Notes: generated from the letters alone by a model not told the origin. 64,000 bases of DNA from a bacterium (GCA_021817785.1 JAKAFY010000007.1:127-64126); one strand, 5' to 3'; positions 1-64,000 are shown, counted from the stretch's first letter. Translations and numbers: made by a program.

Positions 1-53
1 CCTTTGATTTTGATCTGACATTCTGGAATTTTTTCTTATTTCTTCTCATCTAT

Positions 54-1163: not shown

Positions 1164-1184
1164 AAGCGTTATAATAAATCGATT

Positions 1185-6011: not shown

Positions 6012-6085
6012 ATATTTAATAGGCAGGCGTAATTATAAATAACCTAGCTATAGTATACTAACGGGATATTGTTGTGTAGTTCATT

Positions 6086-9097: not shown

Positions 9098-9114
9098 TCG
9101 AAATCGATATAAAT

Positions 9115-11749: not shown

Positions 11750-11769
11750 TATGATCCAAACACATTTAT

Positions 11770-13195: not shown

Positions 13196-13695
13196 TTTTC
13201 TGTACAATAGGCACGACGGACTTCATTTTTCCGAGACTTATCCAGGCGCTTGATGCATCTCTTATAGGACAGACGGAATTATTAATACTGCAGGGAAACG
13301 CGGGGACATATCAATTACGATATACTCACGTGCGATCATTTCACGAGCTTCCATTTCATAAAATGATTTATTATATGTCGCGGGCACGGGCTATTGTGTC
13401 TCACGCCGGCGCGGGAACCTTGTTAATGGCTCTTCAATACACAAAAACCAAACCCTTTGTCGTCCCGCGTCTTGCAAAATTCCATGAACACGTAGACAAT
13501 CACCAATTATTCTTTTCGGAATACATGCATTCTCGGGGACTTGTTGTCGGAAATTTTACGGACAATCTTCTGGTTCATAACCTGCGTACATATCTTCGCA
13601 ATCCTCCGCAACAGAGGGGATATCGGCGGGGCGTTCACATTGAACCACTTATACATGGTCTTGATTCATTAATCCATAATCCCAAGCACGACTAA
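13177..13695 (+). CDS. Alg13-like glycosyltransferase catalytic subunit (GT28 C-terminal domain; Cps14G-like).
   Basis: 'MIFCTIGTTDF' resembles the Alg13 'VFVTVGTT.F' start. It is paired and translationally coupled with the Alg14-like gene. Confidence 0.6.
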   Translation: MGECYMIFCTIGTTDFIFPRLIQALDASLIGQTELLILQGNAGTYQLRYTHVRSFHELPFHKMIYYMSRARAIVSHAGAGTLLMALQYTKTKPFVVPRLAKFHEHVDNHQLFFSEYMHSRGLVVGNFTDNLLVHNLRTYLRNPPQQRGYRRGVHIEPLIHGLDSLIHNPKHD

Positions 13696-15722: not shown

Positions 15723-15740
15723 GGTGGTATACTGTCAAAA

Positions 15741-16757
15741 CTAAAACATAGCCGCCCAAATATTCATGGCTTTTGTCAGGCGTCTAAAATATTTGGTTTC
15801 GGGAAATGCGCCGGCGCTTGCAAGTTCCCTATAGCAACGGGTGGTTGCGTGTGTTGAAAACGATAGACTGGTGATAGTCTGCCATAGTTGTTCGTTTACG
15901 CCCATTGCGCGTTTTTCTTTTATCAAGTTTTTTTTGGGGTCGGATGCTTTTTTGTGCTCGACAAACGGAGACCCGTTAACGACTGCAACACCCAAATGAT
16001 CAAGGATTTTTTTGGCAAATATGCCGGCCCAAATGTCGTCATACCGGTCAAATCCCCACGCTCCCCCCTGGGGATCTTTGCCCATGAGGGGAAAATACAT
16101 AAGCGGGGTAATTTCGCGGGTAAATGCCAGATTCATCGAGCTCATCGGGAAATAATATCCGAACGGAATGTATTGGCGAAGCGGGGGGTAAGCGGCGACG
16201 TTTACGTTGCCTATCGCAAGCTGTGTTTTGGCATCCATATCCATCTTGTTTGACCACAATCCGTGGCTTATGCCCACCCGGTGAACATTGCGTGTGTCAT
16301 AAGGAAATCCGCGGGTGTACATATAGTCGGGGTGGGGGAACGTGGCAAACCAACTGCTCGGCGCTTTACTTGCTAAATTGTCGAGGTGTTTTTGAACAAA
16401 CCTTTTTTCTGCGGGAAAACAGTCGTCGTCCAGGGTAATAATGACGTCCGCTCCTTTTTGATAGGCTTTCCAAAATCCATATGAGCGTATTCCTGCGTTC
16501 TGGCGGGGGAAAATCCACTCGTTGGCGCCAAAATCGTTGCGGATGTCTTTCCAGGTGTAATGGTCGATGGATAAAAACCCCCTTGTCGGGGCTTGTATTT
16601 CTTTTTCCTTATGATCTTCCACAATGATAAGGTGGCAATCTTCAAATTCTCCGCGCCAGGCTTCTAAAAAATCGAGCGTTCTGATGGTGGGAATAACCAC
16701 ATAAATGTTCATGTCCATCACTATATCATAGAATTTCCCGCGCATCATGCTTGACAA
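15741..16757 (-). CDS. GT75 / reversibly-glycosylated-polypeptide (RGP, UDP-arabinopyranose mutase-like) family glycosyltransferase homolog.
   Basis: 'VVIPTIR' N-terminus and 'ITLDDDCFPA' (DDD/DxD motif) as in the RGP family. Soluble, ~338 aa. Confidence 0.4.
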   Translation of the reverse strand: MSSMMRGKFYDIVMDMNIYVVIPTIRTLDFLEAWRGEFEDCHLIIVEDHKEKEIQAPTRGFLSIDHYTWKDIRNDFGANEWIFPRQNAGIRSYGFWKAYQKGADVIITLDDDCFPAEKRFVQKHLDNLASKAPSSWFATFPHPDYMYTRGFPYDTRNVHRVGISHGLWSNKMDMDAKTQLAIGNVNVAAYPPLRQYIPFGYYFPMSSMNLAFTREITPLMYFPLMGKDPQGGAWGFDRYDDIWAGIFAKKILDHLGVAVVNGSPFVEHKKASDPKKNLIKEKRAMGVNEQLWQTITSLSFSTHATTRCYRELASAGAFPETKYFRRLTKAMNIWAAMF

Positions 16758-52021: not shown

Positions 52022-52465
52022 ATGAAGATTATCAACAGGAAAGCCACATTTGATTATGACATCACCGACCGTTTTGAAGCGGGTATCATCCTGACCGGTC
52101 CGGAGGTGAAATCCCTGCGAGGTGGACACGGGAAGCTCGAGGGAGCATTCGTCCGTCTGATCGGGGGCGAGGCGTATTTAGTTAACGCAGAGATATTTCC
52201 CTACGAGTTTGCCCGGTTGGAAAAATATGACGCCAGGCGAACCCGGAAGCTCCTGCTGCATAAAAAAGAGCTCATAAGTTTGAAGTCCAAAATGGACGGC
52301 GGGCATTTGACCCTGATCCCGCTTTCCTGGTATACTACAGGACGCCAATTGAAGCTGGAAGTAGGCTTGGCACGGGGAAAGAAACAATACGAAAAACGGG
52401 AGAAAAAGCGGAAAGAAGAGCAAAAAAAAGAGTTGGAACGGGAATTTCGGGGAAAGGTAAGATAA
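52022..52465 (+). CDS. smpB: SsrA-binding protein.
   Basis: 'ATFDYDITDRFEAGIILTGPEVKSLR' SmpB signature. Basic C-terminal tail. Confidence 0.9.
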   Translation: MKIINRKATFDYDITDRFEAGIILTGPEVKSLRGGHGKLEGAFVRLIGGEAYLVNAEIFPYEFARLEKYDARRTRKLLLHKKELISLKSKMDGGHLTLIPLSWYTTGRQLKLEVGLARGKKQYEKREKKRKEEQKKELEREFRGKVR

Positions 52466-52594: not shown

Positions 52595-53026
52595 GGGGAT
52601 GCATGATTCGACGGGAGACGCACGTTAACAGACCGCAAGCCGGCGATGACAAAAGAGCCGTAAAAATTTTGTTAAAATTATAGATGCTAAACCATCTAAA
52701 TTAGCACTCCGAAGGATGTTAGATAAAGCATACGCTGAACTAGCAGCTCTTCAGGGCGCTTTTGCTCGACCAGCAGAACTTGCATACGCAGGCTACGCAA
52801 ACTAAGAGCCATTGTGTGAGAATTATTTCTCGCGAGTTTCACACAGTGTAAACATAGCGGGGACGTCAGAGACATGATGATCGGCGTGTCTTGGAGCAAT
52901 TTTTCGATCAACCCTATAGAAAAGTATTTGTCCATTCTGTCTTTTCTATAGAACGAAATGGACTACGCTTGTAGACGTTTGTGACCTGTTCTTTCGGACC
53001 CGGGCTCATTACCCGGCATCTCCACA
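52595..53026 (+). ncRNA. ssrA: tmRNA (ssrA); the boundaries are approximate.
   Basis: The 5' end 'GGGGATGCATGATTCGACGGG' matches the conserved tmRNA 5' end 'GGGGCUGAUUCUGGAUUCGACGGG'. The 3' tRNA-like end 'GGACCCGGGCTCATTACCCGGCATCTCCA' has a T-arm and an acceptor complementary to the 5' end. An internal Ala-rich ORF ends 'GCAAACTAA GAGCC', similar to the E. coli 'TAA..CTTAGAGCC'. It lies directly downstream of smpB. Confidence 0.6.
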
Positions 53027-53147
53027 CTCCGCCCCGATAAAAATATCGGGGCTTCGCGTGGCAAGCCACATTAGACATCTGGGTGACCTTGTTTTTTGTG
53101 CGGAGTGTGTCCCGCGTAGTCCCATATTGAAGGGACGTAGTGGGACA

Positions 53148-53384
53148 ATGTATTACGTATATATTCTTCGAATATCTGATGCGTCTCTATATATTGGATA
53201 TTCTTCAGACTTAAAAAAACGGATACTGGCACATACATATAAGCAAGTTTCTTCAACGAAATATGCAAGGTCAGTAAAGTTGATTTGGTATGCAGCGTTT
53301 TATCTTCAATCTAATGCTATCGCATTTGAAAAATACTTGAAATCAAGTTCCGGTTTTGCCTTTCGAAATAAATATCTCATATGA
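53148..53384 (+). CDS. GIY-YIG nuclease domain protein (small, ~78 aa).
   Basis: 'MYYVYILRISDASLYIGYSSDLKKRILAH' matches the GIY-YIG motif. The longer ORF 53058..53384 overlaps the tmRNA 3' region. Confidence 0.6.
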   Translation: MYYVYILRISDASLYIGYSSDLKKRILAHTYKQVSSTKYARSVKLIWYAAFYLQSNAIAFEKYLKSSSGFAFRNKYLI

Positions 53385-54049
53385 ACCTTCTCGATATTCT
53401 TTTTCCAAAACGTTGTGTCGGCTGCGGCAGGATAGGGACGTATTTCTGTGAAAAGTGTCGCGGCAGGATCCGGTATATTGCCGCAAACGAGGCCATCTGC
53501 CCCATGTGTGGGCACTCCGCAATTGACGGAGCCACACACCCCGGATGCCGCACCAGGTATGGGCTAGACGGACTTACCAGTTTTTTCCGGTATGACGGCC
53601 CGATCAGAAAAGCCGTTCAATCGGTGAAATACCGGTTGATTACCGATCTCGTGACGGAATTTGTATCACTGGTCCCGCAATCATCGGTAGTAGACACTTC
53701 CGCAGCCGATTATTTCCTACCTATGCCGCTCCATGCCTCCCGCTTGAAATCCCGCGGGTTTAACCAGGCAGAGGTATTGGGGACGGCTTTTGCGGCACGA
53801 TTGCATATTCCGGTAGCTCTTGATATCCTCCGGCGAGTGAGGGCAACAGCGCCTCAGGTAGCGATGAAAACGAGAGAAGACCGGCTGAACAACATGAAAC
53901 ATGTATTTCAGGCCGCCAGGACAATCCAAAATGATCATATACTGCTTTTTGATGACGTCTTTACGACCGGAGCGACCATGAGAGCTGCCGCAAACGCGTT
54001 GAAACGAGCAGGAGCAAAATACATTTGGGCCGTCACGATGGCCCGATAA
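53381..54049 (+). CDS. comFC: ComF-family protein (ComFC-like phosphoribosyltransferase with an N-terminal zinc ribbon).
   Basis: 'CVGCGR...CEKCRGR...CPMCGH' Cys clusters. PRTase motif 'ILLFDDVFTTGATM'. Confidence 0.75.
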   Translation: MNLLDILFPKRCVGCGRIGTYFCEKCRGRIRYIAANEAICPMCGHSAIDGATHPGCRTRYGLDGLTSFFRYDGPIRKAVQSVKYRLITDLVTEFVSLVPQSSVVDTSAADYFLPMPLHASRLKSRGFNQAEVLGTAFAARLHIPVALDILRRVRATAPQVAMKTREDRLNNMKHVFQAARTIQNDHILLFDDVFTTGATMRAAANALKRAGAKYIWAVTMAR

Positions 54050-54052
54050 CCT

Positions 54053-54712
54053 ATGAATAAAAAAGTACATACCATTGCGATCATTGCCGGCGGCACGCCG
54101 CCGGACCGGTTTCTCCGTGATATACGGCATGCCGATCTGATCATAGGCGCAGATCGGGGAGCGCTTTGGCTTACTAAGCATGATATTCACCCAGATATTG
54201 CGATAGGAGATTTTGATTCGGTGACAATGCGGGAAAAATCGCAGATTGCAACATACGCAAAACGCATGCTGGTATATCCGCCCGAAAAAGATGCAACGGA
54301 TTTGGAACTGGCGATAGACGAGTCCGTAAAGCTGGCTCCGAAGACAGTGGTGATCTACGGAGCATTCGGGAGCAGGTTTGATCATTCATTGGCAGCGCTG
54401 CACATGCTTTTGAAGCTAGAGTCGCACAATATTTCAGGACAAATTGTGGATAACTTTAATAAAATATCCATTGTGCGACGTCAAATACGGATAAAACGAG
54501 ACGCAAAGTTCCAATACGTTTCTATCCTACCGATACAGTCCTCAGCGACCGTCTCATTGCGTGGGTTTTATTACAACCTTACTTGTGTACGTATAGAATC
54601 GGCTTCAACACGTGGAATCAGTAATGAAATCATTGCCGCGGACGCGTCGATACTAGTTCATAATGGCAAGATCGTTGTCATTCAGTCTGCAGATACTCCC
54701 ATGATTGGTTGA
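54053..54712 (+). CDS. Thiamine pyrophosphokinase.
   Basis: 'IAGGTPPD...IGADRGALWL...IGDFDSV' TPK motifs. ~219 aa. Confidence 0.7.
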   Translation: MNKKVHTIAIIAGGTPPDRFLRDIRHADLIIGADRGALWLTKHDIHPDIAIGDFDSVTMREKSQIATYAKRMLVYPPEKDATDLELAIDESVKLAPKTVVIYGAFGSRFDHSLAALHMLLKLESHNISGQIVDNFNKISIVRRQIRIKRDAKFQYVSILPIQSSATVSLRGFYYNLTCVRIESASTRGISNEIIAADASILVHNGKIVVIQSADTPMIG

Positions 54713-54745
54713 TAAGAAGGGTTTTGAAGCATATAATGAAGCTAT

Positions 54746-54831
54746 GGAGAGTGGGCCGGACGGTAAGGCACAGGTTTGCTAAACCTGCACCGCAGCAATG
54801 CGGTGAGTGGGTTCAACTCCCACACTCTCCG
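54746..54831 (+). tRNA. tRNA-Ser (anticodon GCU), class II. CCA not encoded.
   Basis: Hand fold: acceptor GGAGAGT/ACTCTCC; anticodon stem CAGGT/ACCTG with loop TTGCTAA; long variable arm; T-arm GTGGG-TTCAACT-CCCAC. Confidence 0.7.
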
Positions 54832-54832
54832 C

Positions 54833-55465
54833 ATGAAACGATATCTTTCCACGGAAATTGCACATATCAAGGATCAGCGGGAAAAATATAAATATTCATT
54901 TTCCTACCTGTCCCGTCTCTATAATATTCCTTCCTCTACCATCAGAAACTGGTGTGGTGACGGGTCTCTCTCCAAAGCAGAGGTGCTGCGCGCGTTCCAT
55001 GCCAGAAAACGGGAAGAGATAAAGTTGTCTGAAATTCCAATATCTACGGTGACGCGAATTTCATCAGATACCGCAAAACTTTATTCGGCACTTTTGTATT
55101 GGTGCGAGGGTTCAAAATATCCAGGATCAAATGCCATGAGCATGGCAAACAGCGATCCTGTGCTGCTTCGTACATTTGTGACGTTGCTCCGCAAAGGGTT
55201 TATTTTGGATGAACATAAATTTAGGATCCACTTGCAGATACATAGCAACCAAGATTATGAATACCTGAAGAAGTATTGGAGCGACCAACTCAAGGTGTCG
55301 GCAACCCAATTTATTCGGCCAACCATTACCGCTCCGGAAGGAAAAAAACATCACCCGGCGTATTATGGTACCTGCACGCTCAAATATCAGGATTACGCAC
55401 TTCAACTCAAACTCATTGGCATCTATGAAGATTTTGCGCGAAAGAATGGGTTATTTCATGGCTAG
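54833..55465 (+). CDS. Hypothetical protein with a putative HTH and weak LAGLIDADG-like features. It starts immediately after tRNA-Ser(GCU).
   Basis: 'YNIPSSTIRNWC' has HTH character. 'LLYWCEGSKYPGSNAMSMANSD...LLRTFVTLLRKGF' is weakly LAGLIDADG-like. The longer ORF 54776 start overlaps the tRNA. Confidence 0.3.
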   Translation: MKRYLSTEIAHIKDQREKYKYSFSYLSRLYNIPSSTIRNWCGDGSLSKAEVLRAFHARKREEIKLSEIPISTVTRISSDTAKLYSALLYWCEGSKYPGSNAMSMANSDPVLLRTFVTLLRKGFILDEHKFRIHLQIHSNQDYEYLKKYWSDQLKVSATQFIRPTITAPEGKKHHPAYYGTCTLKYQDYALQLKLIGIYEDFARKNGLFHG

Positions 55466-55486
55466 AATGATATAATGTGCTCATCT

Positions 55487-55571
55487 GGAGGGTGGGCAGG
55501 ACGGTAATGCGCGAGTCTTGAAAACTCGTGGGAGCAATCCCTAACAGGTTCGACCCCTGTATCCTCCGCCA
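55487..55571 (+). tRNA. tRNA-Ser (anticodon UGA), class II, with encoded CCA.
   Basis: Acceptor GGAGGGT/ATCCTCC followed by G-CCA. Anticodon stem CGAGT/ACTCG with loop CTTGAAA. Long variable arm. T-arm ACAGG-TTCGACC-CCTGT. Confidence 0.75.
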
Positions 55572-55637
55572 ATACAGGAAAACCTCTTGACAGATTAGCA
55601 CTCTGTGTATTAGACTGCTAATTGTAACAGAAGGGAG

Positions 55638-56075
55638 GTGATAGAGATGACGTTAGAAATTACCCCAAGGCCATTTTGGATGCTGCCATCTATGCCGTTT
55701 TCCGATTTTTGGAAAGATGCCGATGAATGGATGAGTACCCCGTGGACACAGAATGGTTTATCCGTCTACGAAGACCCGAAGCAAAAACAGGTACGCTTCG
55801 AAGCGGCCGTACCGGGAGTCGACCCCAAAGACATCGAGGTGACGTATGCAGATGGGAGCCTGTTCATCCGCGGCGAATCCAAGGAGGAACAAAAAAATGA
55901 CAAGACCACCATGTCACAGCACCGGTCATACTTCTATAAAGTGGCAGTGCCGGATACGGTCGACCAATCAGTCGAACCGGAGGCGACGTATAAACACGGT
56001 GTCATGACCGTCGCGTTTACGACATCTTCAAAGCCGCAACCAAAACAAATCCAGGTAAAGAGTATTGAGAAATAA
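55638..56075 (+). CDS. Hsp20/alpha-crystallin family small heat-shock protein.
   Basis: 'VRFEAAVPGVDPKDIEVTYADGSLFIRGE' alpha-crystallin domain. 145 aa. Confidence 0.85.
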   Translation: MIEMTLEITPRPFWMLPSMPFSDFWKDADEWMSTPWTQNGLSVYEDPKQKQVRFEAAVPGVDPKDIEVTYADGSLFIRGESKEEQKNDKTTMSQHRSYFYKVAVPDTVDQSVEPEATYKHGVMTVAFTTSSKPQPKQIQVKSIEK

Positions 56076-56094
56076 CGAAACAAGAGATGTATAT

Positions 56095-56127
56095 GGCATC
56101 CCCACTCCATTTGAGAGCGGGGGTGCC
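56095..56127 (+). terminator. GC-rich hairpin downstream of hsp20. Possible terminator, but the U-tract is weak.
   Basis: GGCATCCCC-N15-GGGGGTGCC is a 9-bp stem with one G-U pair. It starts 20 nt after the hsp20 stop and is followed by ATATCT. Confidence 0.3.
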
Positions 56128-56158
56128 ATATCTGGTAGAATACGGGGGTCGTGTCTTT

Positions 56159-56243
56159 GGAGGCGTCGCATAGCGGCTATTGCAACGGTTTACTAAACCG
56201 TCGACCGAAAGGTCTCGTGGGTTCGAGTCCCTCCGCCTCCGCC
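56159..56243 (+). tRNA. Class II tRNA-like gene. A hand fold gives anticodon ACU (Ser-type body), which is unusual. It may be an atypical tRNA or a pseudo-tRNA.
   Basis: Acceptor GGAGGCG/CGCCTCC followed by G-CC. D-stem GCA/TGC. Anticodon stem ACGGT/ACCGT with loop TTACTAA. 15-nt variable arm. T-arm GTGGG-TTCGAGT-CCCTC has one U-U mismatch. Confidence 0.4.
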
Positions 56244-56348
56244 TTCGCTTCGCCGTAGCTCGTAAGAGCGAAGGCGAGCAACTTCGAAGCTTCGGCGAGA
56301 CGCTGTCCGCTAGTAGCCCAACGAAGTCTTGGCGAAGTCGACTAGGTT

Positions 56349-56603
56349 ATGAATTATGTCTACATTATAAAATGTTCAGACGATCGAACCTACATTGGTT
56401 GCACCGACGATCTAAAGAATAGAATTGATCGTCATCAAAAAGGCAATGTTCCAGCAACAAAAGCAAGATTACCAATTAAACTTATTTCCTATTTCGCGTT
56501 TTCCAACAAATATATTGCATTTAACTTTGAAAGATATCTTAAATCTGGTTCCGGAAGAGCATTTTTAAAGAAGCATGATATTATTAAAAAGGAGGATTTA
56601 TGA
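56349..56603 (+). CDS. GIY-YIG nuclease domain protein.
   Basis: 'MNYVYIIKCSDDRTYIGCTDDLKNRIDRHQKGN' matches the GIY-YIG motif. 84 aa. Confidence 0.65.
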   Translation: MNYVYIIKCSDDRTYIGCTDDLKNRIDRHQKGNVPATKARLPIKLISYFAFSNKYIAFNFERYLKSGSGRAFLKKHDIIKKEDL

Positions 56604-56806
56604 AAAATGAGAATCTGTCAGTTTTGTTATCAAAAAGCTGGCATTTAATCCTATTAGCAGGATTAGTCGGTTACGTTATTGGTACCAGAGTTTTTCATAT
56701 AGGCGATGCGTCTTTAGTTGGGCTTGTAATTGGATTGTTTGCGATCGGAGTAATTTGGACCGGTTTAGTGGTCGGATTTCAAACCTCTCGAAACACAAAG
56801 AGATAA
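56600..56806 (+). CDS. Small two-TM membrane protein.
   Basis: 68 aa with two hydrophobic helices, overlapping the GIY-YIG stop. Confidence 0.25.
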   Translation: MKNENLSVLLSKSWHLILLAGLVGYVIGTRVFHIGDASLVGLVIGLFAIGVIWTGLVVGFQTSRNTKR

Positions 56807-56818
56807 GTTGTCTATCAA

Positions 56819-57316
56819 TTGGTCATAGATTTTAACACTGTTAATGATCCTTCGCATATGAAACCAGGTGTCGACTATATCGGGATATCGGTAGGCGCAC
56901 TCATCGTTAATGAGAAGGGCGAGATATTTTTGACGAAACGGGGAGAACGCGCAACCAACGAGCGGGGCACATGGGAAATCCCGGGAGGAAAAGTGCAGTT
57001 TGGCGAAACACTGCAGGATGCGGCGCGGCGGGAAATGAAAGAGGAGTATGGCGTCGATCTGATCCTTACGTATCAGTTTCCTGCTCAGGATCATCTGATC
57101 CCTGCGGAACAGCAGCACTGGGTACCCACAAGTTTCATCGCCCGAATAACGCAAGGGCAGACGCCAACGATTTTGGAACCCGATAAATGCAGCGCGATCG
57201 GCTGGTTTCGCCTTGATGCCCTCCCCGACCCTCTTTCGATCATCACGAAGCTTGATATCGAGATGTACCGGAAATTTCTTTCCGGCGCTGATCTATTTTC
57301 CATCAAAGCAAATTAG
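56819..57316 (+). CDS. NUDIX hydrolase.
   Basis: Nudix box 'GGKVQFGETLQDAARREMKEEYGV'. Confidence 0.8.
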   Translation: MVIDFNTVNDPSHMKPGVDYIGISVGALIVNEKGEIFLTKRGERATNERGTWEIPGGKVQFGETLQDAARREMKEEYGVDLILTYQFPAQDHLIPAEQQHWVPTSFIARITQGQTPTILEPDKCSAIGWFRLDALPDPLSIITKLDIEMYRKFLSGADLFSIKAN

Positions 57317-57330
57317 TCTATACTGATGGC

Positions 57331-57849
57331 ATGGAGACCGAAGGCAAAAAACGCAGTTCCGGAAATGAGGAAGTCTACGCGGAATGGTCCGCCCCATCAC
57401 GGTTATTTAAAAAGCGGGATCGGGAATATTTTGTCAATATTGCAGCCATCGTATTTCTTCTCTGCGTCATATTGGTATTTGCCCGGGAATTCGTGCTTAT
57501 TGCGACCGTGCTTTCCATCGTATTTTTGATTTACGTATTATCCACGGTGCCGCCGGAAGACGTAAAGCATCGGGTGACGAGTCTCGGGATAGAGAGCGCC
57601 GGGCATTTTTACCGCTGGGAAGAATTTGCGGACTTTTGGTTTGAAGAGCAGTGGGGGCAGGTCATGATGGTCGTGCGCCCGTATCTGTCTCCTCGGCTTA
57701 TTATTCTTCTGGGCGGAGAATCCAAGGCGCGCATACGTGAATTCGTCGCAAAACATATCCCGTTTCGCGAAGAGCCGGATCGTACATGGGTCGATAATGC
57801 CGCCCGCTGGATGAGTGAAAAAATTCCGCTGGAGAAGCCTCAAACCTAG
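57331..57849 (+). CDS. Hypothetical two-TM membrane protein.
   Basis: 172 aa with two adjacent TM helices (IAAIVFLLCVILVF / LIATVLSIVFLIYV). Confidence 0.3.
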   Translation: METEGKKRSSGNEEVYAEWSAPSRLFKKRDREYFVNIAAIVFLLCVILVFAREFVLIATVLSIVFLIYVLSTVPPEDVKHRVTSLGIESAGHFYRWEEFADFWFEEQWGQVMMVVRPYLSPRLIILLGGESKARIREFVAKHIPFREEPDRTWVDNAARWMSEKIPLEKPQT

Positions 57850-57887
57850 CCATACGCGGCAATCCATAGTACAATGACGTCTTGAAA

Positions 57888-57962
57888 GCTCCTGTAGTTC
57901 AATGGATAGAATAGGGGATTGCGGATCCTCTGATCGCAGTTCAACTCTGCGCGGGAGCGCCA
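57888..57962 (+). tRNA. tRNA-Arg-like (hand-folded anticodon GCG), with encoded CCA.
   Basis: Acceptor GCTCCTG/CGGGAGC followed by G-CCA. Anticodon stem GGGGA/TCCTC (one G-U pair) with loop TTGCGGA. T-arm CGCAG-TTCAACT-CTGCG. Its backbone is nearly identical to the tRNA at 61184. Confidence 0.55.
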
Positions 57963-58382
57963 ATGATTATGACCATAGCCGTCTGTGGAAGCCTCACGTT
58001 TTATAAAGAAATCCGGGAAGCCCAGAAAAAGCTGGAGGCATTAGGACACCGCGCGTTGGTACCCAAAAGTATCCGTCTCATAGAGGAGGAGGGATATATA
58101 AAGCCGAAAACGGTATCCGAGCGGTTGGCCGCGGAAGCGAAATATCACTTTATCAGCGAGCATTTTGCGAAAGTAGAACAGTCCGATGCCATACTAGTGG
58201 TGAATCCGGAAAATCACGGGATCCCCGGCTATATCGGCGGTAACACATTTCTGGAAATCGGAGTCGCATTTTATCTAAAAAAGAAGATCTATTTTCTCTA
58301 TGTCATACCGCATATGGCATATGAACTGGAATTGGCCTCTATGTATCCTACCGTTTTAGACGGTGACCTTTCCGCGATATAA
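57963..58382 (+). CDS. Nucleoside 2-deoxyribosyltransferase-like (NDT-superfamily, flavodoxin-like) small protein, paralog A.
   Basis: 'GIPGYIGGNTFLEIGVAFYLKKKIY' resembles the NDT catalytic-Glu region 'D.GT.FE.G.A'. N-terminal 'IAVCGS' Rossmann-like start. 139 aa. Confidence 0.4.
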   Translation: MIMTIAVCGSLTFYKEIREAQKKLEALGHRALVPKSIRLIEEEGYIKPKTVSERLAAEAKYHFISEHFAKVEQSDAILVVNPENHGIPGYIGGNTFLEIGVAFYLKKKIYFLYVIPHMAYELELASMYPTVLDGDLSAI

Positions 58383-58443
58383 TGTTCGCCTTACGGACGT
58401 ATTGCAGTATAATTGTTGGGCTTACCTGCCAGACGGCAGTCGG

Positions 58444-58535
58444 GGAAAGGTGCCGGAGCGGCTAAACGGCCAGGTCTCGAAAACCTTGGGGGCCAGGAAT
58501 GGCCCACGGGAGTTCAAATCTCCCCCTTTCCGCCA
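58444..58535 (+). tRNA. tRNA-Ser (anticodon CGA), class II, with encoded CCA.
   Basis: Acceptor GGAAAGG/CCTTTCC followed by G-CCA. 3-bp D-stem with a large loop. Anticodon loop CTCGAAA. Long variable arm. T-arm GGGAG-TTCAAAT-CTCCC. Confidence 0.75.
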
Positions 58536-58558
58536 TGGATGACGAAAAAAGGAAACGT

Positions 58559-58975
58559 ATGATCATAACAATTTGCGGCAGCATGCAGTTTCATAAGGAG
58601 ATGGGAGACGTCCGTGACACGCTGAAAGCGCGCGGATTTACCGTGTTTGTGCCGGGAGAGCTTACTGACCTGGATCACAATGAATACTATCAGCACTCGG
58701 ACGAAGAACGGATTACCGTAAAGATAGAATACGATTTTATAAGGGAACATTTCCGAAGGATTGAACAGGCGGAAGCGATTCTCATACTAAATTATGAGAA
58801 AAAGGGAGTCCCGGGCTATATCGGCGGAAATACCTTTTTGGAGATGGGCTACGCATTCGGGCTCGGCAAGAAAATTTATCTTCTGAATCCCATACCGGAT
58901 ATGGATTACAAAACAGAAATGCATGCGATCCAGCCCGTGATCCTCAATGGCGACCTTTCGAAAATTAATTCTTAA
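58559..58975 (+). CDS. Nucleoside 2-deoxyribosyltransferase-like small protein, paralog B. The start is taken at the internal Met matching paralog A.
   Basis: 'GVPGYIGGNTFLEMGYAFGLGKKIY'. Same architecture as 57963..58382. The longer ORF 58499 start overlaps the tRNA. Confidence 0.4.
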   Translation: MIITICGSMQFHKEMGDVRDTLKARGFTVFVPGELTDLDHNEYYQHSDEERITVKIEYDFIREHFRRIEQAEAILILNYEKKGVPGYIGGNTFLEMGYAFGLGKKIYLLNPIPDMDYKTEMHAIQPVILNGDLSKINS

Positions 58976-61044
58976 GGCTGTGTGTTCCGGCCGTCCTGTT
59001 TCTCTAGAAGGATAAGCGTTCGTTGCACCCTCCCCTTATCGTCGGTTATCACCAGTGACCCGCCGTTTATTCCTTTGAGGATAGTGTTTTTGGCCCGTTC
59101 CGCTCCTGACGTACCGTCATAGGTCGTCGTACTATACAGTCTTGAACAGCACTCAAAATAGTGAGTATTGGTGACCGCTCCCACGTCGACGACTCCGCTT
59201 CCGTAATTGACGCGGCCGTATGCGGGAGTCAACGTTACCCCGGAAAACGAGGTAAGCAGCTGTTTTTGCACTGTGTTCATCGGTGTTGGGGGAACGCCGA
59301 TCGGTACCGGCTGATCGGTCAGCGCATTTCCATGGATGCGCTGATGGAGATGGACGACGTTTATAGTGTGTTGAAATAATCCGGAAATATATGTGAGCAA
59401 TTCTGTTTCGCGGGACACGGTGATGCGCTGCGGCGTAATCCATATCATGTCGCCGGCGACATCTTCAGCGATCGGCTTTTTATCGCTGGCCAACAGTGAT
59501 CCGCGCCGCGCAGGATCAATCGTTGTTTTTAATTGACGGCCGACTCCGAACCCTGTAAATAAGAAAGACCAGTCCCAGGGAATTCTCCATCGCCCATCCT
59601 CCTTTAGTATGGGAATGTTGTGTGTTTCGGAAAACTGCCCCAGATTCCGCGTGGAATACGTTACGACGACCCGCATCGTTTGCGGTGAGACGAACCGATG
59701 CCAGGTCATGGGTTGTAGGCGGATATCGATAGATTCGATCTCCGCGTCGTTAAACGCCATAAGCGCAAACCGGTTAAATGCTACGATGCTCCATCGGGAT
59801 TTGCTGCCTGTCGTTATGTCCTGGTACATATCCTGAAAGAACATATGTTCCCAGTTGTACATAATTTGATGAGCTGTCGCCTCCGGCGTGGGAAACAGAA
59901 TCGGAACAGACGCCGTGATATTGACACAAATCAGAACACCGATCATCACAAGCGCCCAGCGCCTGGGAATGTGTGAGAGCGAATAGACGGCAAGAAGATA
60001 CAGGAGCGGAAGCAGCAAAACAAGATACCGCGTCCAAAACGGAATCACCTGGTATAAAAGCAGCGTATACCCTGCTATACATGCGATAATGATCCATTGG
60101 AAACTCCGTTGTTTGCCGCGTGCAATACGATATAATCCCATAAGGGCCGCGACGGATATGACTGTCCACGCCGGACTCCATTCCGGAGAATGTACCCAGG
60201 ATCGGTCGTAAATATTCTGATAGAAACCCGTCAAGAGATTGATGAATGCACTCCCCCAAGTTGGCACGAGATTGCTGTGCGTATAAAATGAAATAATCCA
60301 CTTTTGAGTTCGTATCCAATCGACCAATGTATGGCCGCCGATAAAATACGGTATATATGGGATAAGATACCCGACCGGAATACTTATACAATAGAGTATG
60401 GCAAGACGGATGTTTCGATATGTTTTCCAGATAGTAATGAAGCCGATGAGTATAAGTATCGGTGTTAGAATCGGAAATTTTATTCCAGAGAAACCACCGA
60501 GTACGAGTCCGGCAATTGCGGGAAGCCATCGTTTCCTTTTTCGTGCAGTAAGAAGGAGAAGAATAAACATTAAAAGAAAAAATGCCTGTAAGCTGTCGAG
60601 CATGGTACGAGGGAATTGACTGGTGATGAGCGGATCAGTGATAAAAAGCGTTGTTGCCGCGAGGGAGAGAAGTCTATTTTGTATCAGTAGCTGGCACAAC
60701 AGAAAAAACATGACAACTACAAGGCTCGTCGTAATAAATCCGTAAATATACCCGTTTCCGGTGGTAAGAATGCTTGCTCCGATAAGATATTTCCCGAGAG
60801 GGGGGACTTCTGCATTGTATCGTGTGGGGTCGTCGCCATGAATAAGTCGATACCCTTCATACAAATACAAACCGTCATCGCCGATTGTGCGAACAGAAAG
60901 AGGAAGAGCCCACTGTGAGTGTTCAAACTTATCTTTCCAATATGATGCATCAAATGAAGAAAAAAATAATGCCCGATTGCAAAACACAACCAGTGCAAGA
61001 TAGGAAAGACATACGGCAATAAATCCGCGGGTAATCCACCGCAT
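58972..61044 (-). CDS. Large polytopic membrane protein, GT-C fold (GT39/ArnT/PMT-like) glycosyltransferase candidate, with a C-terminal soluble domain.
   Basis: Ten or more TM helices in the first ~400 aa. An acidic 'GDDGLYLYEGYRL' motif in the first extracytoplasmic loop. A ~250-aa C-terminal beta-rich domain. Confidence 0.4.
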   Translation of the reverse strand: MRWITRGFIAVCLSYLALVVFCNRALFFSSFDASYWKDKFEHSQWALPLSVRTIGDDGLYLYEGYRLIHGDDPTRYNAEVPPLGKYLIGASILTTGNGYIYGFITTSLVVVMFFLLCQLLIQNRLLSLAATTLFITDPLITSQFPRTMLDSLQAFFLLMFILLLLTARKRKRWLPAIAGLVLGGFSGIKFPILTPILILIGFITIWKTYRNIRLAILYCISIPVGYLIPYIPYFIGGHTLVDWIRTQKWIISFYTHSNLVPTWGSAFINLLTGFYQNIYDRSWVHSPEWSPAWTVISVAALMGLYRIARGKQRSFQWIIIACIAGYTLLLYQVIPFWTRYLVLLLPLLYLLAVYSLSHIPRRWALVMIGVLICVNITASVPILFPTPEATAHQIMYNWEHMFFQDMYQDITTGSKSRWSIVAFNRFALMAFNDAEIESIDIRLQPMTWHRFVSPQTMRVVVTYSTRNLGQFSETHNIPILKEDGRWRIPWDWSFLFTGFGVGRQLKTTIDPARRGSLLASDKKPIAEDVAGDMIWITPQRITVSRETELLTYISGLFQHTINVVHLHQRIHGNALTDQPVPIGVPPTPMNTVQKQLLTSFSGVTLTPAYGRVNYGSGVVDVGAVTNTHYFECCSRLYSTTTYDGTSGAERAKNTILKGINGGSLVITDDKGRVQRTLILLEKQDGRNTQP

Positions 61045-61183
61045 ACGTACGTTATTGTAGCAGGAAGCTCCTGTGGGCGGTATAATACGTGCTACGCATC
61101 GGTAGTTTCGGCTGAAGGCCGATCAGCCCTTGGCTGACGGTGGTAGTGCATGTCGGCAGAGCATAGACGACTATGCGTTTTAA

Positions 61184-61255
61184 GCACCAGTAGTTCAATG
61201 GATAGAATGCGGCCCTCCGAAGGCTGTGATGACAGTTCAACTCTGTCCTGGTGCA
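61184..61255 (+). tRNA. tRNA-Arg (anticodon CCG). CCA not encoded.
   Basis: Acceptor GCACCAG/CTGGTGC followed by A. Anticodon stem CGGCC/GGCTG with loop CTCCGAA. T-arm GACAG-TTCAACT-CTGTC. Confidence 0.7.
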
Positions 61256-61265
61256 CAGTGTGGTA

Positions 61266-61910
61266 TTATTTTTTTTCTTTATGATGTGCCACTCCCTCCG
61301 GGGTGACAACTTGTGAGTCGATAACTTTTCCTTCAGTGTTGACCGACAGGATAAGCGCCTCGCCTTTTTCAATCGAAGATTCCACACCCGGAGTTCCCTG
61401 GTCGCCAGTTTTGAGGTAATGAAGGATCATGCCAATCACCTCATCGTGAGTTACGATGGCAATAGAGCCTGATTTATGTGATTCGAGAACGCGTTTGTAT
61501 TCTGATATAACGCGTTCATATGCGTGGGCAAGGGTTTCTCCATGTATATCCGGCGTCATCGGATTATCTGCAAAAAAATTTCCTTTTACCAAACCGAGTT
61601 CGGTAGCCGGTCTGTGGTCCCATTGCGGGGTACGTGCGCCGTTAAATTGCGCATCCGGTATGACCGGCGGATGACCCGGAAATTTTTCATGGAGAAGATT
61701 GGCGGTCTGGTACGCGCGTTCATATTGGCTGGAAAAAATAAGATCCGGGTGTATGCCCTGGTTCGCAAGATTTTCTGCCAGGCGGATACTCTGGTGCATA
61801 CCATGGGTGCTGAGGGGCTCATGCGGTCCGTAGATGCAGGGAACTCCGTGTCCTACGGCTAACGAATCCACACTTCCGTGGCGGATGAGAAGCACGGTCC
61901 TTCCCTCCAT
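61266..61910 (-). CDS. Histidine phosphatase superfamily protein (phosphoglycerate mutase/SixA-like).
   Basis: 'VLLIRHGSVD' RHG catalytic motif and 'THDEVIG'. 214 aa. Confidence 0.7.
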   Translation of the reverse strand: MEGRTVLLIRHGSVDSLAVGHGVPCIYGPHEPLSTHGMHQSIRLAENLANQGIHPDLIFSSQYERAYQTANLLHEKFPGHPPVIPDAQFNGARTPQWDHRPATELGLVKGNFFADNPMTPDIHGETLAHAYERVISEYKRVLESHKSGSIAIVTHDEVIGMILHYLKTGDQGTPGVESSIEKGEALILSVNTEGKVIDSQVVTPEGVAHHKEKK

Positions 61911-61960
61911 AATGGCTATATTATATCAAAACATATCAAGTTTTCTGGTATAATAGCCGT

Positions 61961-62554
61961 ATGGATAAAAGACAGCGGACCAACCTCATCTATGAAGCGG
62001 CAAATGTAAAGCGGATGCTCCGGACCGGGTGGCAACGATTGGGAGACAACGAAGAAGGCGTCGGGGAACATTCGTTTATGACAGCAGTCATTGCGTATCT
62101 TATAGCCCGCGAAATCAACGGCGAACAAAATGCCACACGGCACGTTTCCATGGAAAAAATTATGCTCATGAGCGTGTTCCATGATTTTCATGAGGGCCGA
62201 ACCGGAGAACTGGACAAAGTGGCCAAGCTGTATCTTACCAGATACGAGGAAAAGGCAAATCACGACATATTTAAAGGCGTGGATGATGAACTGCTGGCAC
62301 TTCTTACGGAATACGAATCCCGCCAAACGTTAGAAGCACAGGTGGTGTATGAGGCAAATGTCATCGCCTTTGGTGTGGAGTGCAAAATCCTCATGGAAAA
62401 AGGGAATACCCATGCCAAAGAATGGATGGATGCCAACTCGAAGCGCGTGCGGCTTCCGGAATCCGTGGGACTTATGGATTCCCTGGCAATCACCGATTCG
62501 CAGGATTGGTGGAAAGATATCCGAGAAGCGATCCACGAAGAGTTTGCAAAATGA
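61961..62554 (+). CDS. HD-domain phosphohydrolase (YfbR-like 5'-deoxynucleotidase).
   Basis: 'EHSFMTAVIAY...FHDFHEGRTGELD' is an H...HD...D metal-binding pattern. 197 aa. Confidence 0.65.
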   Translation: MDKRQRTNLIYEAANVKRMLRTGWQRLGDNEEGVGEHSFMTAVIAYLIAREINGEQNATRHVSMEKIMLMSVFHDFHEGRTGELDKVAKLYLTRYEEKANHDIFKGVDDELLALLTEYESRQTLEAQVVYEANVIAFGVECKILMEKGNTHAKEWMDANSKRVRLPESVGLMDSLAITDSQDWWKDIREAIHEEFAK

Positions 62555-63526
62555 TTACTCCCCCTGGCTAAAGAGAATAGCCGAGAGTTTTTTGGTAATC
62601 TGTCCGCTGGTTGCGATGATGACCCCGATGACGACCAAGGCGCTTCCCAATATATAGTTGACCGTAAACGCCTCTCCCAAGACCACACCATTGATGCCGA
62701 CGCCCACGACAAGTTGAAGATATTCTTTGAGAGATGCCGTAGAGGCGGATACGTGCTGTATCGCCCATTGAAACAGAAAGAACGTAATGACGGTAATGCC
62801 GATTGCCGCATAGATCATGGTGCCCAAATAGGTGGGTGTACGGAAGGCCGGAACCAAAAATGATTGATGGGTAACCAGGGCCGCGATCGCGGATCCGACG
62901 GTGCACGTAAACAAATTGATAGACGTCGAAACAATCGGTGAAAACGTCCCTTTGGAAAGGATATGCCGCGAATAGATGATATACATGGTCCAGCTCAACA
63001 GACTTCCTACCTCCAGGAGGTTGCCGGCAAGCGTCCCCCCGATGGCTTGCCCATGTACAATGATAGGCAAAAGGACAATATATAAAACACCGATAAGTCC
63101 CAGGACAATGCCAATAAGTTTTTGTCTTGACGGCGACTCATGAATCAGAAGGTACGAACACGCCGTTACGGTGATCGGTACCGCGGTGCCCAAGATAACC
63201 ATGGTGTTTGCGGTGGTGAGGGCAGCTCCCGTGTAATAAAACAAGACGTTTCCGGTGTTAAATAGCCCGAGAGGCAATAATTGCAGTAAATATCCTTTTG
63301 GTTTTTTGGCCATTACGAATAACGGGAGAAGGATAACTGACGCAATGCCAAACCGGTAAAAGGTAACCACAAATGGGTTGGTCTGCGCGACCAAAACTTT
63401 GGCAACCGAACTGGCACTTGCCCAGAGGCATGCCGCGATAATGATGGCAAGAAGCGCTTTTGTTTTTATCGTCATCGGGCTCATTATAGCATCCTGACCC
63501 GCCGAAAAGATGATATAATCACACAT
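62555..63526 (-). CDS. EamA/DMT-family transporter (10-TM drug/metabolite exporter).
   Basis: Two 5-TM EamA-like halves with Gly-rich helices (GLIGVLYIVLLPII; GINGVVLGEAF). Confidence 0.7.
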   Translation of the reverse strand: MCDYIIFSAGQDAIMSPMTIKTKALLAIIIAACLWASASSVAKVLVAQTNPFVVTFYRFGIASVILLPLFVMAKKPKGYLLQLLPLGLFNTGNVLFYYTGAALTTANTMVILGTAVPITVTACSYLLIHESPSRQKLIGIVLGLIGVLYIVLLPIIVHGQAIGGTLAGNLLEVGSLLSWTMYIIYSRHILSKGTFSPIVSTSINLFTCTVGSAIAALVTHQSFLVPAFRTPTYLGTMIYAAIGITVITFFLFQWAIQHVSASTASLKEYLQLVVGVGINGVVLGEAFTVNYILGSALVVIGVIIATSGQITKKLSAILFSQGE

Positions 63527-63791
63527 GTGTATGTGGTACGTGTATGTGATGCGGAGTCTACGGGATAAAAAGCTCTATATTGGGAAGACGTCAGATTTGA
63601 AAACACGTTTTAAGGTGCACAACGCAGGCGGTTCGTTAGCAACCAGATCGAGAAGACCGTTTGAGTTGGTTTATTACGAAGCGTTTGGTGATAAAACTGA
63701 CTACGGGAGGGAAGAGATATTTTTAAAGTCCGGTATTGGCAGAGAATCGTTGCATCACAGACTAGGACATACGTTACATAACGGTTTCTAA
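63525..63791 (+). CDS. GIY-YIG nuclease domain protein.
   Basis: 'WYVYVMRSLRDKKLYIGKTSDLKTRFKVHN' matches the GIY-YIG motif. 88 aa. Confidence 0.65.
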   Translation: MCMWYVYVMRSLRDKKLYIGKTSDLKTRFKVHNAGGSLATRSRRPFELVYYEAFGDKTDYGREEIFLKSGIGRESLHHRLGHTLHNGF

Positions 63792-63865
63792 TAGTTGGTC
63801 GCCTCTGACGGCGACCCACCCTATCGGTGGGTCGAATCGAATATGGCGACCCGCCTTTAGAGGCG

Positions 63866-63950
63866 GGAGGAGTGGCCCAGCGGCTACGGCATACGCTTGG
63901 AAAGCGTACGGGAGTAATCCCTCGCAGGTTCGAGTCCTGTCTCCTCCGCA
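63866..63950 (+). tRNA. tRNA-Ser (anticodon GGA), class II. CCA partly encoded.
   Basis: Acceptor GGAGGAG/CTCCTCC followed by G-CA. Anticodon stem TACGC/GCGTA with loop TTGGAAA. Long variable arm. T-arm CAGG-TTCGAGT-CCTG. Confidence 0.7.
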
Positions 63951-64000
63951 CTTCGACAAGCTCAGTACCTCTCGTGGGTACTATATGAACTGGTATACCT

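Follow-up and report, generated by a model that had tools for sequence, protein, structure and literature searches.

The array and its GIY-YIG genes

The window is the whole 64,000-nucleotide stretch of bacterial DNA that was analysed (GCA_021817785.1, JAKAFY010000007.1:127-64126), and coordinates refer to it unless a related locus is named. From the transfer-messenger RNA (tmRNA) gene onwards it holds an array of tRNA genes, in which three short genes for GIY-YIG nucleases, GIY1 to GIY3, and the relic of a fourth are found. These genes, together with the structured leaders or hairpins that adjoin them (hereafter cassettes), are the subject of this work. The neighbouring genes (a type IV secretion system pilin, DUF5657) and the names of homologues assign the host to Candidatus Gottesmanbacteria, of the Microgenomates within the candidate phyla radiation (CPR); it is described as an ultra-small groundwater bacterium. 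An identical locus is found in the metagenome-assembled genome GCA_027424465.1 and in further assemblies, and the locus labelled L001 below is from the same genome as the window.

The tRNA genes were called with ARAGORN across the 64-kb window, and Rfam was used as a second check. The RNA genes of the array are:

52595 to 53027, + strand: tmRNA gene (Rfam RF00023, 104.4 bits against a cutoff of 47, E 1e-39), the downstream neighbour of smpB
54746 to 54832, + strand: tRNA-Ser(GCU) (ARAGORN, Rfam)
55487 to 55571, + strand: tRNA-Ser(UGA) (ARAGORN, Rfam), the 3' end of which is the edge of a hypervariable cargo slot
56159 to 56243, + strand: Ser-type tRNA with anticodon ACU (A34) (ARAGORN; Rfam 48.7 bits against a cutoff of 29)
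57888 to 57962, + strand: tRNA-Arg(GCG) (ARAGORN, Rfam)
58444 to 58535, + strand: tRNA-Ser(CGA) (ARAGORN; Rfam clan match)
61184 to 61256, + strand: tRNA-Arg(CCG) (ARAGORN, Rfam)
63866 to 63949, + strand: tRNA-Ser(GGA) (ARAGORN, Rfam)

Rfam scores of the tRNA genes ranged from 42.6 to 63.4 bits. For tRNA-Ser(CGA), the top Rfam model was that of the clan-mate tRNA-Sec, with a score under that model's cutoff. All tRNA genes named in an earlier reading made from the DNA alone (the sequence-only reading) were recovered by ARAGORN and Rfam, every one on the + strand, as was the tmRNA gene. That reading had counted four tRNA-Ser and two tRNA-Arg genes; the Arg count was correct, but five Ser-type genes are present. 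The strongest sigma-70-like promoter match of the region (54709-54737) lies just 5' of tRNA-Ser(GCU).

The GIY-YIG genes and the relic are:

53148 to 53384, + strand: GIY1, 78 aa (PF01541, E 1e-12), in the slot between the tmRNA gene and comF, its stop codon overlapping the comF start
56349 to 56603, + strand: GIY2, 84 aa (PF01541, E 9e-13), 3' of tRNA-Ser(ACU)
63525 to 63865, + strand: GIY3 cassette, an open reading frame (ORF) from 63525 or 63531 to 63791 (86-88 aa; PF01541, E 2e-15) and 3' hairpins
63950 to 64000, + strand: relic of a fourth cassette directly after tRNA-Ser(GGA), with leader ACTTCGACAAGCTCAGT... and an ATG at 63985 (MNWYT...)

The three genes had been recognized as GIY-YIG genes from the DNA alone, and PF01541 scores of 48.6, 48.8 and 57.3 bits (cutoff 22.6; E 1e-12 to 2e-15) bear this out. 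No further GIY-YIG ORF was found in the other 53 kb of the window by a family hidden Markov model search. GIY1, GIY2 and GIY3 share 35-49 % pairwise identity; the Y, Y-I-G, R, H and E columns are invariant in their alignment and mostly kept in the full-length copies of a 31-sequence alignment. The nearest solved structure to GIY2 is the UPF0213 protein BH0048 (1zg2_A, E 1.2e-8), with 1ywl_A at E 0.2, and all three proteins are of the UPF0213 type, having a single catalytic domain, a length of 78-88 aa and similarity to BH0048/EF2693. No second Pfam domain was found in any of them, and the ORFs stop 5-15 residues past the catalytic core. GIY2 has 671 homologues, the named ones being from Gottesmanbacteria, Shapirobacteria or the 'Patescibacteria group'.

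Placement of GIY-YIG genes in related loci

For comparison, 80 metagenome loci were retrieved with DUF172 (172 aa, 57331-57849) as the anchor, and one further locus, L005, came from a genome scan. The scan of a genome collection with a 690-aa protein gave only this one relative, and synteny is therefore drawn mostly from metagenome loci. All were mapped with ARAGORN, BLASTP and nhmmer. In total, the comparison took in about 100 related Microgenomates loci. The related loci separate into two layers, namely a kept tRNA order with its backbone genes, and patchy insertions (the GIY-YIG genes and ORF210, a putative endonuclease gene described below). In its left part the backbone reads p616-smpB-tmRNA-comF-TPK-Ser(GCU)-Ser(UGA)-[variable]-(NUDIX)-DUF172-Arg(GCG), where TPK is a thiamine pyrophosphokinase gene, and in its right part Arg(GCG)-(NDT-A)-Ser(CGA)-NDT-B-(p690)-Arg(CCG)-HD-EamA-Ser(GGA). 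On this comparison the 'tRNA island' is an old, stable array.

Placement was evaluated in 677 kb of non-redundant related loci containing 31 GIY-YIG ORFs (35 copies with redundant loci). Twenty-six of the 31 ORFs are within 250 bp of a tRNA or tmRNA gene, where 11.9 were expected, and this number was reached in 0 of 200,000 random-placement simulations, the null of which takes no account of insertions being tolerated only in intergenic DNA. All 35 copies share the strand of the nearest RNA gene, which in every case is a tRNA-Ser gene or the tmRNA gene. A GIY-YIG gene was found beside tRNA-Arg on none of 91 downstream and none of 110 upstream sides, whereas the tmRNA-comF slot is occupied in 10 of 29 non-redundant loci (it is empty in L005 and L008-L010, for example).

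Occupancy of each slot differs between relatives, and many relatives lack any copy in the array; the GIY-YIG genes are thus sporadic, with identifiable empty sites, in the manner of Seg-like homing endonuclease genes. In L006, which is among the closest relatives (86 % identity in DUF172), the order is a compact GCU-UGA-ACU-NUDIX, and ORF210, hsp20 and GIY2 with the adjoining small ORF TM68 are therefore all missing. The close relatives L097 and L099 have ORF210 and lack hsp20 and GIY2. The sequence-only reading had held that conservation of every small ORF in all relatives, with no flanking repeats, would point to housekeeping genes. The small ORFs are not all syntenic, and flanking repeats do occur in relatives.

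Spurious small ORFs called beside tRNAs, by chance or through annotation, would be a trivial explanation, and one with next to no probability. The long ORF forms that overlap tRNA genes do come from ORF extension, but significant Pfam matches, hundreds of homologues, purifying selection (see below) and the non-random placement already refute it. Those long forms, earlier thought to overlap tRNA 3' ends, are an artefact of extension to upstream TTG or GTG codons; orthologue alignments give later starts, at 53148 for GIY1, 54833 for ORF210 (which abuts the tRNA), about 58559 for NDT-like B and about 57969 for NDT-like A.

A D-arm type ('GTCGCATAG') that might track the presence of GIY-YIG genes was also considered and dropped, as many genomes have it in every one of their Ser isoacceptors.

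The cassette unit, its insertion sites and its decay

The clade of GIY2 (65-89 % amino acid identity, clustered on the GIY cores) is found directly 3' of five different tRNA-Ser isoacceptors:

After tRNA-Ser(ACU): the window
After tRNA-Ser(UGA): L055, L053, L070, L094, L095 and L105
After tRNA-Ser(GCU): L005
After tRNA-Ser(CGA): L045 and L088
After tRNA-Ser(GGA): L025, L048 and L087

Among 17 independent copies of this clade, 13 have an intact tRNA-Ser gene directly upstream. Three (L017, L086 and L103) are ectopic and lie behind a degenerate fragment of a tRNA-Ser T-arm and acceptor, ATAGGTTATAACnnTGTAAAnnGTTCTCCGC, and one (L102) retains just a remnant of a leader. In L045, an intact tRNA-Ser(CGA) gene is followed by a second, partial T-arm/acceptor fragment, the leader and then a frameshifted GIY gene, ahead of NDT-like B. 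DNA homology between the copies starts exactly at the tRNA 3' end and ends with the stop codon of the GIY gene. Leader plus ORF, about 350 bp, is therefore taken as the mobile unit, at times with a piece of the tRNA 3' end.

Copies resembling GIY3 are instead found upstream of tRNA-Ser genes, before tRNA-Ser(GGA) in L017, L071 and L074, and before tRNA-Ser(UGA) in L054. In these four loci, an 11-14-nt copy of the 5' end of the same tRNA precedes the cassette, and the 3' end of the ORF overlaps the intact tRNA. In L059, an exact 14-nt copy of the tRNA-Ser(GGA) 3' end lies directly behind the cassette. The GIY3 site itself can be compared in filled and empty form in the window, L005, L017, L008, L009 and L010, using the following element:

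63506 to 63519, + strand: conserved -10-like element in the promoter region of tRNA-Ser(GGA), GATGATATAAT

The empty site in L008, L009 and L010 consists of ATTATAGCA...GATGRTATAAT, 8-12 nt and tRNA-Ser(GGA). In the window and L005, the GIY3 ORF and its 3' hairpins (63525-63865) are situated exactly between the -10-like box and the tRNA, and the L005 insertion is orthologous (68 % amino acid identity).

Decayed copies are also present. In L001 (12571-12665), from the same genome, the fourth cassette's ORF is cut off when about 11 conserved codons have been read, and a homologous cassette is intact after tRNA-Ser(GGA) in L102. Solo leaders of the GIY2 type, with no GIY gene, lie between tRNA-Ser(CGA) and NDT-like B in L012 (7700-7777) and L048 (5723-5799); in both, the ribosome-binding region GCGAAGGAGAG can pair with the leader 5' CCUUCGC. 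Invasion, decay and loss make up the life cycle expected of a homing endonuclease gene, which is established knowledge (see also PMC11270868).

The contents of the slot behind tRNA-Ser(UGA) are wholly different, or there are none, at an identical tRNA (L024, L049, L055, L063, L069, L075 and L050). An acetyltransferase, a hydrolase, membrane ORFs, a GIY gene or nothing was found there, in each case joined to the tRNA at its 3' end. This flank is a hotspot of gene gain, and it raises the question of whether tRNA 3' ends are generic hotspots for integration or recombination, as for islands with an integrase, with GIY-YIG genes a frequent small cargo moved by other machinery and without a part in their own transfer. 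Besides this exchange of cargo between tRNA-Ser(UGA) and DUF172, two tRNA-Ser(UGA) copies around 1.6 kb of cargo in L094 and a serine recombinase 3 kb away in L086 argue for such a role. Yet none of the genes called in the island of the window codes for an integrase or recombinase, the cassette limits are tight (about 350 bp) and each GIY clade has its own conserved leader. GIY-YIG genes are, moreover, heavily over-represented in the cargo and restricted to tRNA-Ser and tmRNA, despite the tRNA-Arg genes in the same array. We consider this explanation decidedly unlikely.

Structured leaders and expression

The leaders of the two cassettes that follow an RNA gene are:

53028 to 53147, + strand: GIY1 leader, with a long-range stem formed by the inverted repeat ACACTCCGC/GCGGAGTGT and GC-rich hairpins
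56244 to 56348, + strand: GIY2 leader, which begins at the tRNA 3' end and is kept behind five tRNA-Ser genes (minimum free energy fold)

Six aligned leaders between tmRNA and GIY genes contain compensatory changes, and the stem ACACTCCGC/GCGGAGTGT covaries. A hairpin with a GUA/GUA 3x3 internal loop (53110-53147) is found right before the GIY1 ATG.

The first hairpin of the GIY2 leader is, in the window, GCUUCGCC / GUA / GCUC-GUAA-GAGC / GAA / GGCGAGC. Its outer stem GCUUCGCC/GGCGAGC has compensatory variants (U-A to C-G and C-G to U-A) and encloses a symmetric 3x3 loop, G(A/U)A over G(A/U)A, while its inner hairpin occurs in eight versions whose sequences are wholly different and whose pairing is always perfect. 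Covariation in hairpin 1 was read by eye from the sequences and is neither a statistic nor the output of a covariance model. The second hairpin, GCGAGAC-GCU-GUCCGC in the window, is near-invariant among the copies, GCG(A)GAC-NNN-GUCCGC. MAFFT and RNAalifold applied to the GIY2 leaders returned only this invariant second hairpin; hairpin 1 is missed because the inner hairpin varies in both length and sequence. The GIY1 (53110-53147) and GIY2 (56252-56283) leaders have a common design of outer stem, G(A/U)A/G(A/U)A loop and variable inner hairpin, which could be a shared motif for protein binding or processing.

No Rfam family matched 53028-53147 or 56244-56348 at E<=1. A promoter scan found no promoter-like site between the RNA genes and GIY1 or GIY2, and expression by read-through is therefore plausible.

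Two possible explanations: homing-like cassettes or host factors

Occupancy is patchy, empty sites exist, a single clade occupies several tRNA-Ser genes, and duplications, solo leaders and broken copies are found. The explanation we favour, with moderate confidence, is that the tRNA-Ser and tmRNA ends in a conserved Gottesmanbacteria array have been colonised by very small selfish GIY-YIG cassettes in a homing-like manner. Each cassette, of about 350 bp, combines an ORF of 78-88 codons, for a UPF0213-type GIY-YIG catalytic domain only, with a structured leader rich in GC or with trailing hairpins. It always lies in the orientation of the RNA gene, either after the 3' end (GIY1, GIY2 and the fourth relic) or in the gap between promoter and 5' end (GIY3). 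The strong tRNA or tmRNA promoters would drive its transcription by read-through, and processing of the RNase P or Z type would part the tRNA from the mRNA. Where a tRNA-Ser or tmRNA gene end is unoccupied, the nuclease would then cut the DNA there or close by, and the cassette would be copied in during repair, with the conserved T-arm/acceptor (...GGTTCGAnTCC...CTCCGC) as the homology arm. A cassette could in this way move from one isoacceptor gene to another, or from one genome to the next, and invasion would be followed by decay and loss in a homing-like cycle. The spacer between tRNA-Ser(GCU) and tRNA-Ser(UGA) would contain another passenger of this kind, ORF210, with its helix-turn-helix (HTH) and LAGLIDADG-like parts. 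That the nuclease itself drives this mobility is what we infer from the compared sequences.

Several points weigh against this explanation. The main difficulty for classical homing is the size of the proteins, 78-88 aa with no DNA-binding domain; to our knowledge, every characterised GIY-YIG homing endonuclease has such a domain. For GIY2 orthologues, the ratio of nonsynonymous to synonymous divergence (dN/dS) is about 0.1, with synonymous divergence saturated (median dS about 2.5), indicating strong purifying selection. The window has no direct or inverted repeats that could be a target-site duplication. Its GIY flanks, where duplicated target sites had been proposed as a check, contain none beyond tRNA paralogy, and direct repeats of a tRNA end, exact or nearly so, are confined to the surroundings of cassettes in relatives (L059, L045, L017, L054, L071 and L074). 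A search of IMG/VR for phage carriage of GIY2 found no relative. Finally, all the compared loci were sampled around one array, and the placement null disregards the limit to intergenic DNA stated above.

From the low dN/dS and the saturated dS it follows that the GIY2 family is old and functionally constrained, and such constraint would fit repeated homing and a host function equally well. The small GIY-YIG proteins might then be host factors of tRNA-Ser or tmRNA biology, and the patchiness a result of paralogue turnover. They could act, for example, in processing or quality control of class II pre-tRNA or tmRNA, or as a co-regulated stress or repair nuclease, in shared transcription units. 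Long maintenance of the protein, the co-orientation of 35/35 copies near enough for co-transcription and the covarying leader hairpins, as for a functional RNA element, are in keeping with such a role, as are the wide distribution of the family in Microgenomates and the fact that the proteins are of the stand-alone UPF0213 type, encoded on the chromosome in ordinary bacteria. Against host factors stand one clade at five tRNA-Ser genes, ectopic sites with dragged-along tRNA fragments, the tRNA-fragment duplications that bracket cassettes, frameshifted, truncated and leader-only remnants, and the many relatives with no array copy. GIY-YIG domains are, furthermore, known as DNA nucleases. We therefore regard a host role as unlikely.

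Colonisation by homing-like cassettes accordingly remains our preferred account. The proposal in the sequence-only reading that the small genes are mobile insertions holds for GIY1 to GIY3 and ORF210, given the patchy slots, empty sites, duplications, solo leaders and pseudogenes, with homing activity itself presumed, in proteins of the size and constraint described. A mobile element is thus supported by the comparison for the nuclease genes and ORF210, and not for hsp20 or the NDT-like genes. To a bolder version, in which the units of about 350 bp would be a new minimal class of mobile element directed at tRNA ends, in which the conserved leader (as RNA or DNA structure) or the tRNA-like end, and not a protein domain for DNA binding, picks the targets, with recombination driving isoacceptor turnover in the reduced genomes and the birth and spread of the otherwise unreported tRNA-Ser(ACU), we give little credence.

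ORF210

The spacer between tRNA-Ser(GCU) and tRNA-Ser(UGA) is filled by a single gene:

54833 to 55465, + strand: ORF210, putative LAGLIDADG_3-like endonuclease

Searches of Pfam and NCBIfam returned nothing above threshold for ORF210. It has 80 homologues, and all the named ones are from CPR bacteria (Woesebacteria, Berkelbacteria and Ryanbacteria). The sequence-only reading had described an HTH/LAGLIDADG-like ORF. The HTH was confirmed at the N-terminus, where HTH families are matched in homologues; the LAGLIDADG assignment is sub-threshold, as LAGLIDADG_3 matched 3/9 homologues at E 0.06-0.14, under the cutoff, and did not match the window protein. An AlphaFold2 model (predicted local distance difference test score 91.7) predicts a C-terminal alpha-beta-beta-alpha-beta-beta-alpha domain, and an invariant CEG-K motif is located where the first helix of this domain ends. 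Matches in BFVD were weak, no significant match was found in the PDB, and an hhalign comparison with an I-CreI sequence entered by hand was negative.

ORF210 is missing from most loci, in which the GCU and UGA genes are adjacent, and orthologues in the same slot are found in L097 and L099. Distant homologues precede tRNA-Arg(GCG) in L019, L031 and L043, and tRNA-Ser(GCU) in L101 (Woesebacteria).

Cargo of the slot behind tRNA-Ser(UGA)

The slot behind tRNA-Ser(UGA) contains hsp20, tRNA-Ser(ACU), GIY2 and TM68 in the window. Two of these are not considered above:

55587 to 56075, + strand: hsp20 (Pfam HSP20, E 9e-14), at this locus in the window genome only
56600 to 56806, + strand: TM68, a 68-aa hydrophobic ORF with no family, the start of which overlaps the GIY2 stop (ATGA)

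Neither hsp20 nor TM68 is in the locus of any relative, and TM68 is found in the window genome only. They are lineage-specific cargo of the slot behind tRNA-Ser(UGA) and tRNA-Ser(ACU), and hsp20 is not a nuclease gene. In the hsp20 region 55587-55621, a sigma-70-like promoter (TTGACA-18-TAGACT) overlaps a CIRCE-like (controlling inverted repeat of chaperone expression) repeat, TTAGCACTC-N9-GACTGCTAA (55595-55621), which suggests heat-shock control of the HrcA type.

In L094, a Shapirobacteria contig, the two tRNA-Ser(UGA) genes (3-92 and 1752-1840) surround about 1.6 kb of cargo with an HTH gene, an NTPase, an NDT-like gene and an 80-aa ORF, and a leader and GIY gene come next. Directly 3' of the ectopic GIY2 cassette in L086 (4249-4758) is a gene for a 169-aa protein with a cytidine/adenosine-deaminase fold, for which the top NCBIfam model is TadA at 47.8 bits, far under the cutoff of 150.

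tRNA-Ser(ACU)

The tRNA-Ser(ACU) gene is present in 12 loci, about a fifth of the related loci, mostly right after tRNA-Ser(UGA). These are the window, L006, L008-L010, L016, L062, L070, L079, L083, L097 and L099. In an alignment of 11 of these tRNAs, 96.9 % of cells are paired. Both partners have changed in 11 pairs, whereas slid controls gave no more than 1 such pair, and all the sequences share the anticodon loop UUACUAA. With its covarying cloverleaf, long variable arm and G73, the tRNA is of the class II serine type.

The codon box to which ACU belongs is split between Ser (AGY) and Arg (AGR). Inosine would there lead to misreading of AGA, and A34 must therefore stay undeaminated. The genetic code is standard: in orthologues, AGU aligns with Ser, Asn or Thr, and AGA with Arg or Lys. 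Recoding of AGA to Ser through an inosine-modified ICU anticodon was ruled out, as 79 % of AGA codons correspond to Arg/Lys in orthologues. On these alignments tRNA-Ser(ACU) is probably a real, dedicated reader of AGU only, with A34 unmodified. Natural tRNAs with unmodified A34 are very rare, and an engineered ACU tRNA decodes AGU almost exclusively (PMC11066159). We found no report in the literature of a natural bacterial tRNA-Ser(ACU) family. As far as the account cited in PMC11066159 goes, Mycoplasma tRNA-Thr(AGU) is similar in being a bacterial tRNA other than tRNA-Arg(ACG) with A at the wobble position, and differs in that tRNA-Ser(ACU) belongs to a split codon box. The latter would thus be a natural system in which to study unmodified-A34 decoding in such a box.

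Other genes of the array and its surroundings

The remaining genes are:

52022 to 52465, + strand: smpB (Pfam SmpB on the identical L001 gene), present in about 30 related loci, the left anchor
53381 to 54712, + strand: comF-like gene and thiamine pyrophosphokinase gene (Pfam on L001), backbone genes kept in relatives
56858 to 57849, + strand: NUDIX gene, in a subset of loci, and DUF172, a backbone gene
57963 to 58382, + strand: NDT-like A (weak Pfam Nuc_deoxyrib_tr match), in a subset of loci
58559 to 58975, + strand: NDT-like B, a backbone gene

The identities given earlier to hsp20, the NUDIX gene and the two NDT-like paralogs (45 % identity between A and B) agree with the Pfam results. The recurring 'tRNA then small ORF' pattern had been read as a series of insertions. 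This applies to the GIY-YIG genes and ORF210, but NDT-like B and DUF172 are widely kept backbone, NDT-like A and NUDIX occur in some of the loci, and hsp20 carries an operator that resembles CIRCE. From their distribution, the NDT-like, NUDIX and DUF172 genes are best regarded as ordinary genes.

The arrays of the window and of 66 related loci include tRNA-Arg(GCG), with G34, where most bacteria have a TadA-dependent tRNA-Arg(ACG); L034 has tRNA-Arg(UCG) in the same slot. A motif scan found no tadA in the window. tRNA-Ile(UAU), the anticodon of which is uncommon among bacteria, was found in two related CPR contigs (L105 182-256 and L107 243-318). At the other end of the window, positions 1-16000 have a GC content of 0.41-0.45, against about 0.49 elsewhere, and contain a cell-surface polysaccharide cluster with genes for two Wzy-like proteins, two GT4 glycosyltransferases, an asparagine synthase, a PMT-like protein and an epimerase.

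Comparison with known systems

The cassette proteins resemble UPF0213/COG2827 proteins (BH0048, 1zg2) in being single domains of about 80-100 aa with the GIY, YIG, Arg and Glu motifs kept. Escherichia coli YhbQ is another stand-alone GIY-YIG protein of this group. We know of no case in which the UPF0213 proteins of ordinary bacteria are multicopy, tRNA-linked or mobile, whereas here at least four GIY copies or relics lie within 11 kb and are patchy between relatives. If the cassettes are autonomous, they would show a route to site specificity for a GIY-YIG protein made up of a catalytic domain only, a long-standing puzzle for the widespread UPF0213/YhbQ family, and would be among the smallest nuclease-based mobile elements known.

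Free-standing GIY-YIG genes are known in the tRNA cluster of phage T4 (PMC2988022, PMC13096335). Like SegB and other Seg genes of T4, the cassette genes are free-standing, not in introns, within a tRNA cluster and patchy in relatives (PMC2988022; PMC13096335). Seg genes are thought to spread by a double-strand break and its repair, which may co-convert the flanking tRNA (PMC2988022; PMC13096335), and the cassettes may be alike in this respect. The Seg proteins include a DNA-binding domain and are at least about 200 aa long, whereas those of the cassettes are 78-88 aa with the catalytic domain only. The cassettes also differ in being on a bacterial chromosome, placed exactly at tRNA-Ser or tmRNA ends and never at tRNA-Arg, in having a conserved structured leader and tRNA-fragment duplications, and in being known from sequence alone.

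Within the same group of organisms, homing endonucleases are known inside CPR rRNA genes (PMC11270868), so that in both cases nuclease genes are tied to structural RNA genes. The CPR rRNA insertions encode LAGLIDADG and rarely GIY-YIG enzymes, with evidence for both homing and ectopic transposition, and their LAGLIDADG_3 proteins with N-terminal extensions resemble ORF210 (PMC11270868). They sit inside rRNA genes, as introns or intervening sequences. The cassettes lie beside tRNA-Ser and tmRNA genes without interrupting them, and GIY-YIG predominates among their passengers. We found no report in the literature of GIY-YIG cassettes at tRNA-Ser or tmRNA ends in CPR bacteria. The present loci would extend the invasion of CPR rRNA genes by homing endonucleases to tRNA and tmRNA genes. 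In these genomes of about 1 Mb, the array is rigid except at the ends of its tRNA-Ser genes, where it is plastic.

Integrase islands likewise target tRNA and tmRNA 3' ends, and a copy of the tRNA end can keep the gene intact and leave a partial repeat, as may be the case in L059 and L045. The cassettes, in contrast, have no integrase, are of about 350 bp and not kilobases, and are in some cases inserted on the 5' side, with duplication of tRNA nucleotides 1-14. Their presence at different tRNA-Ser and tmRNA genes in different relatives suggests that the cassettes are a previously undescribed minimal mobile element, for which the filled, empty and decayed sites now form a testable set.

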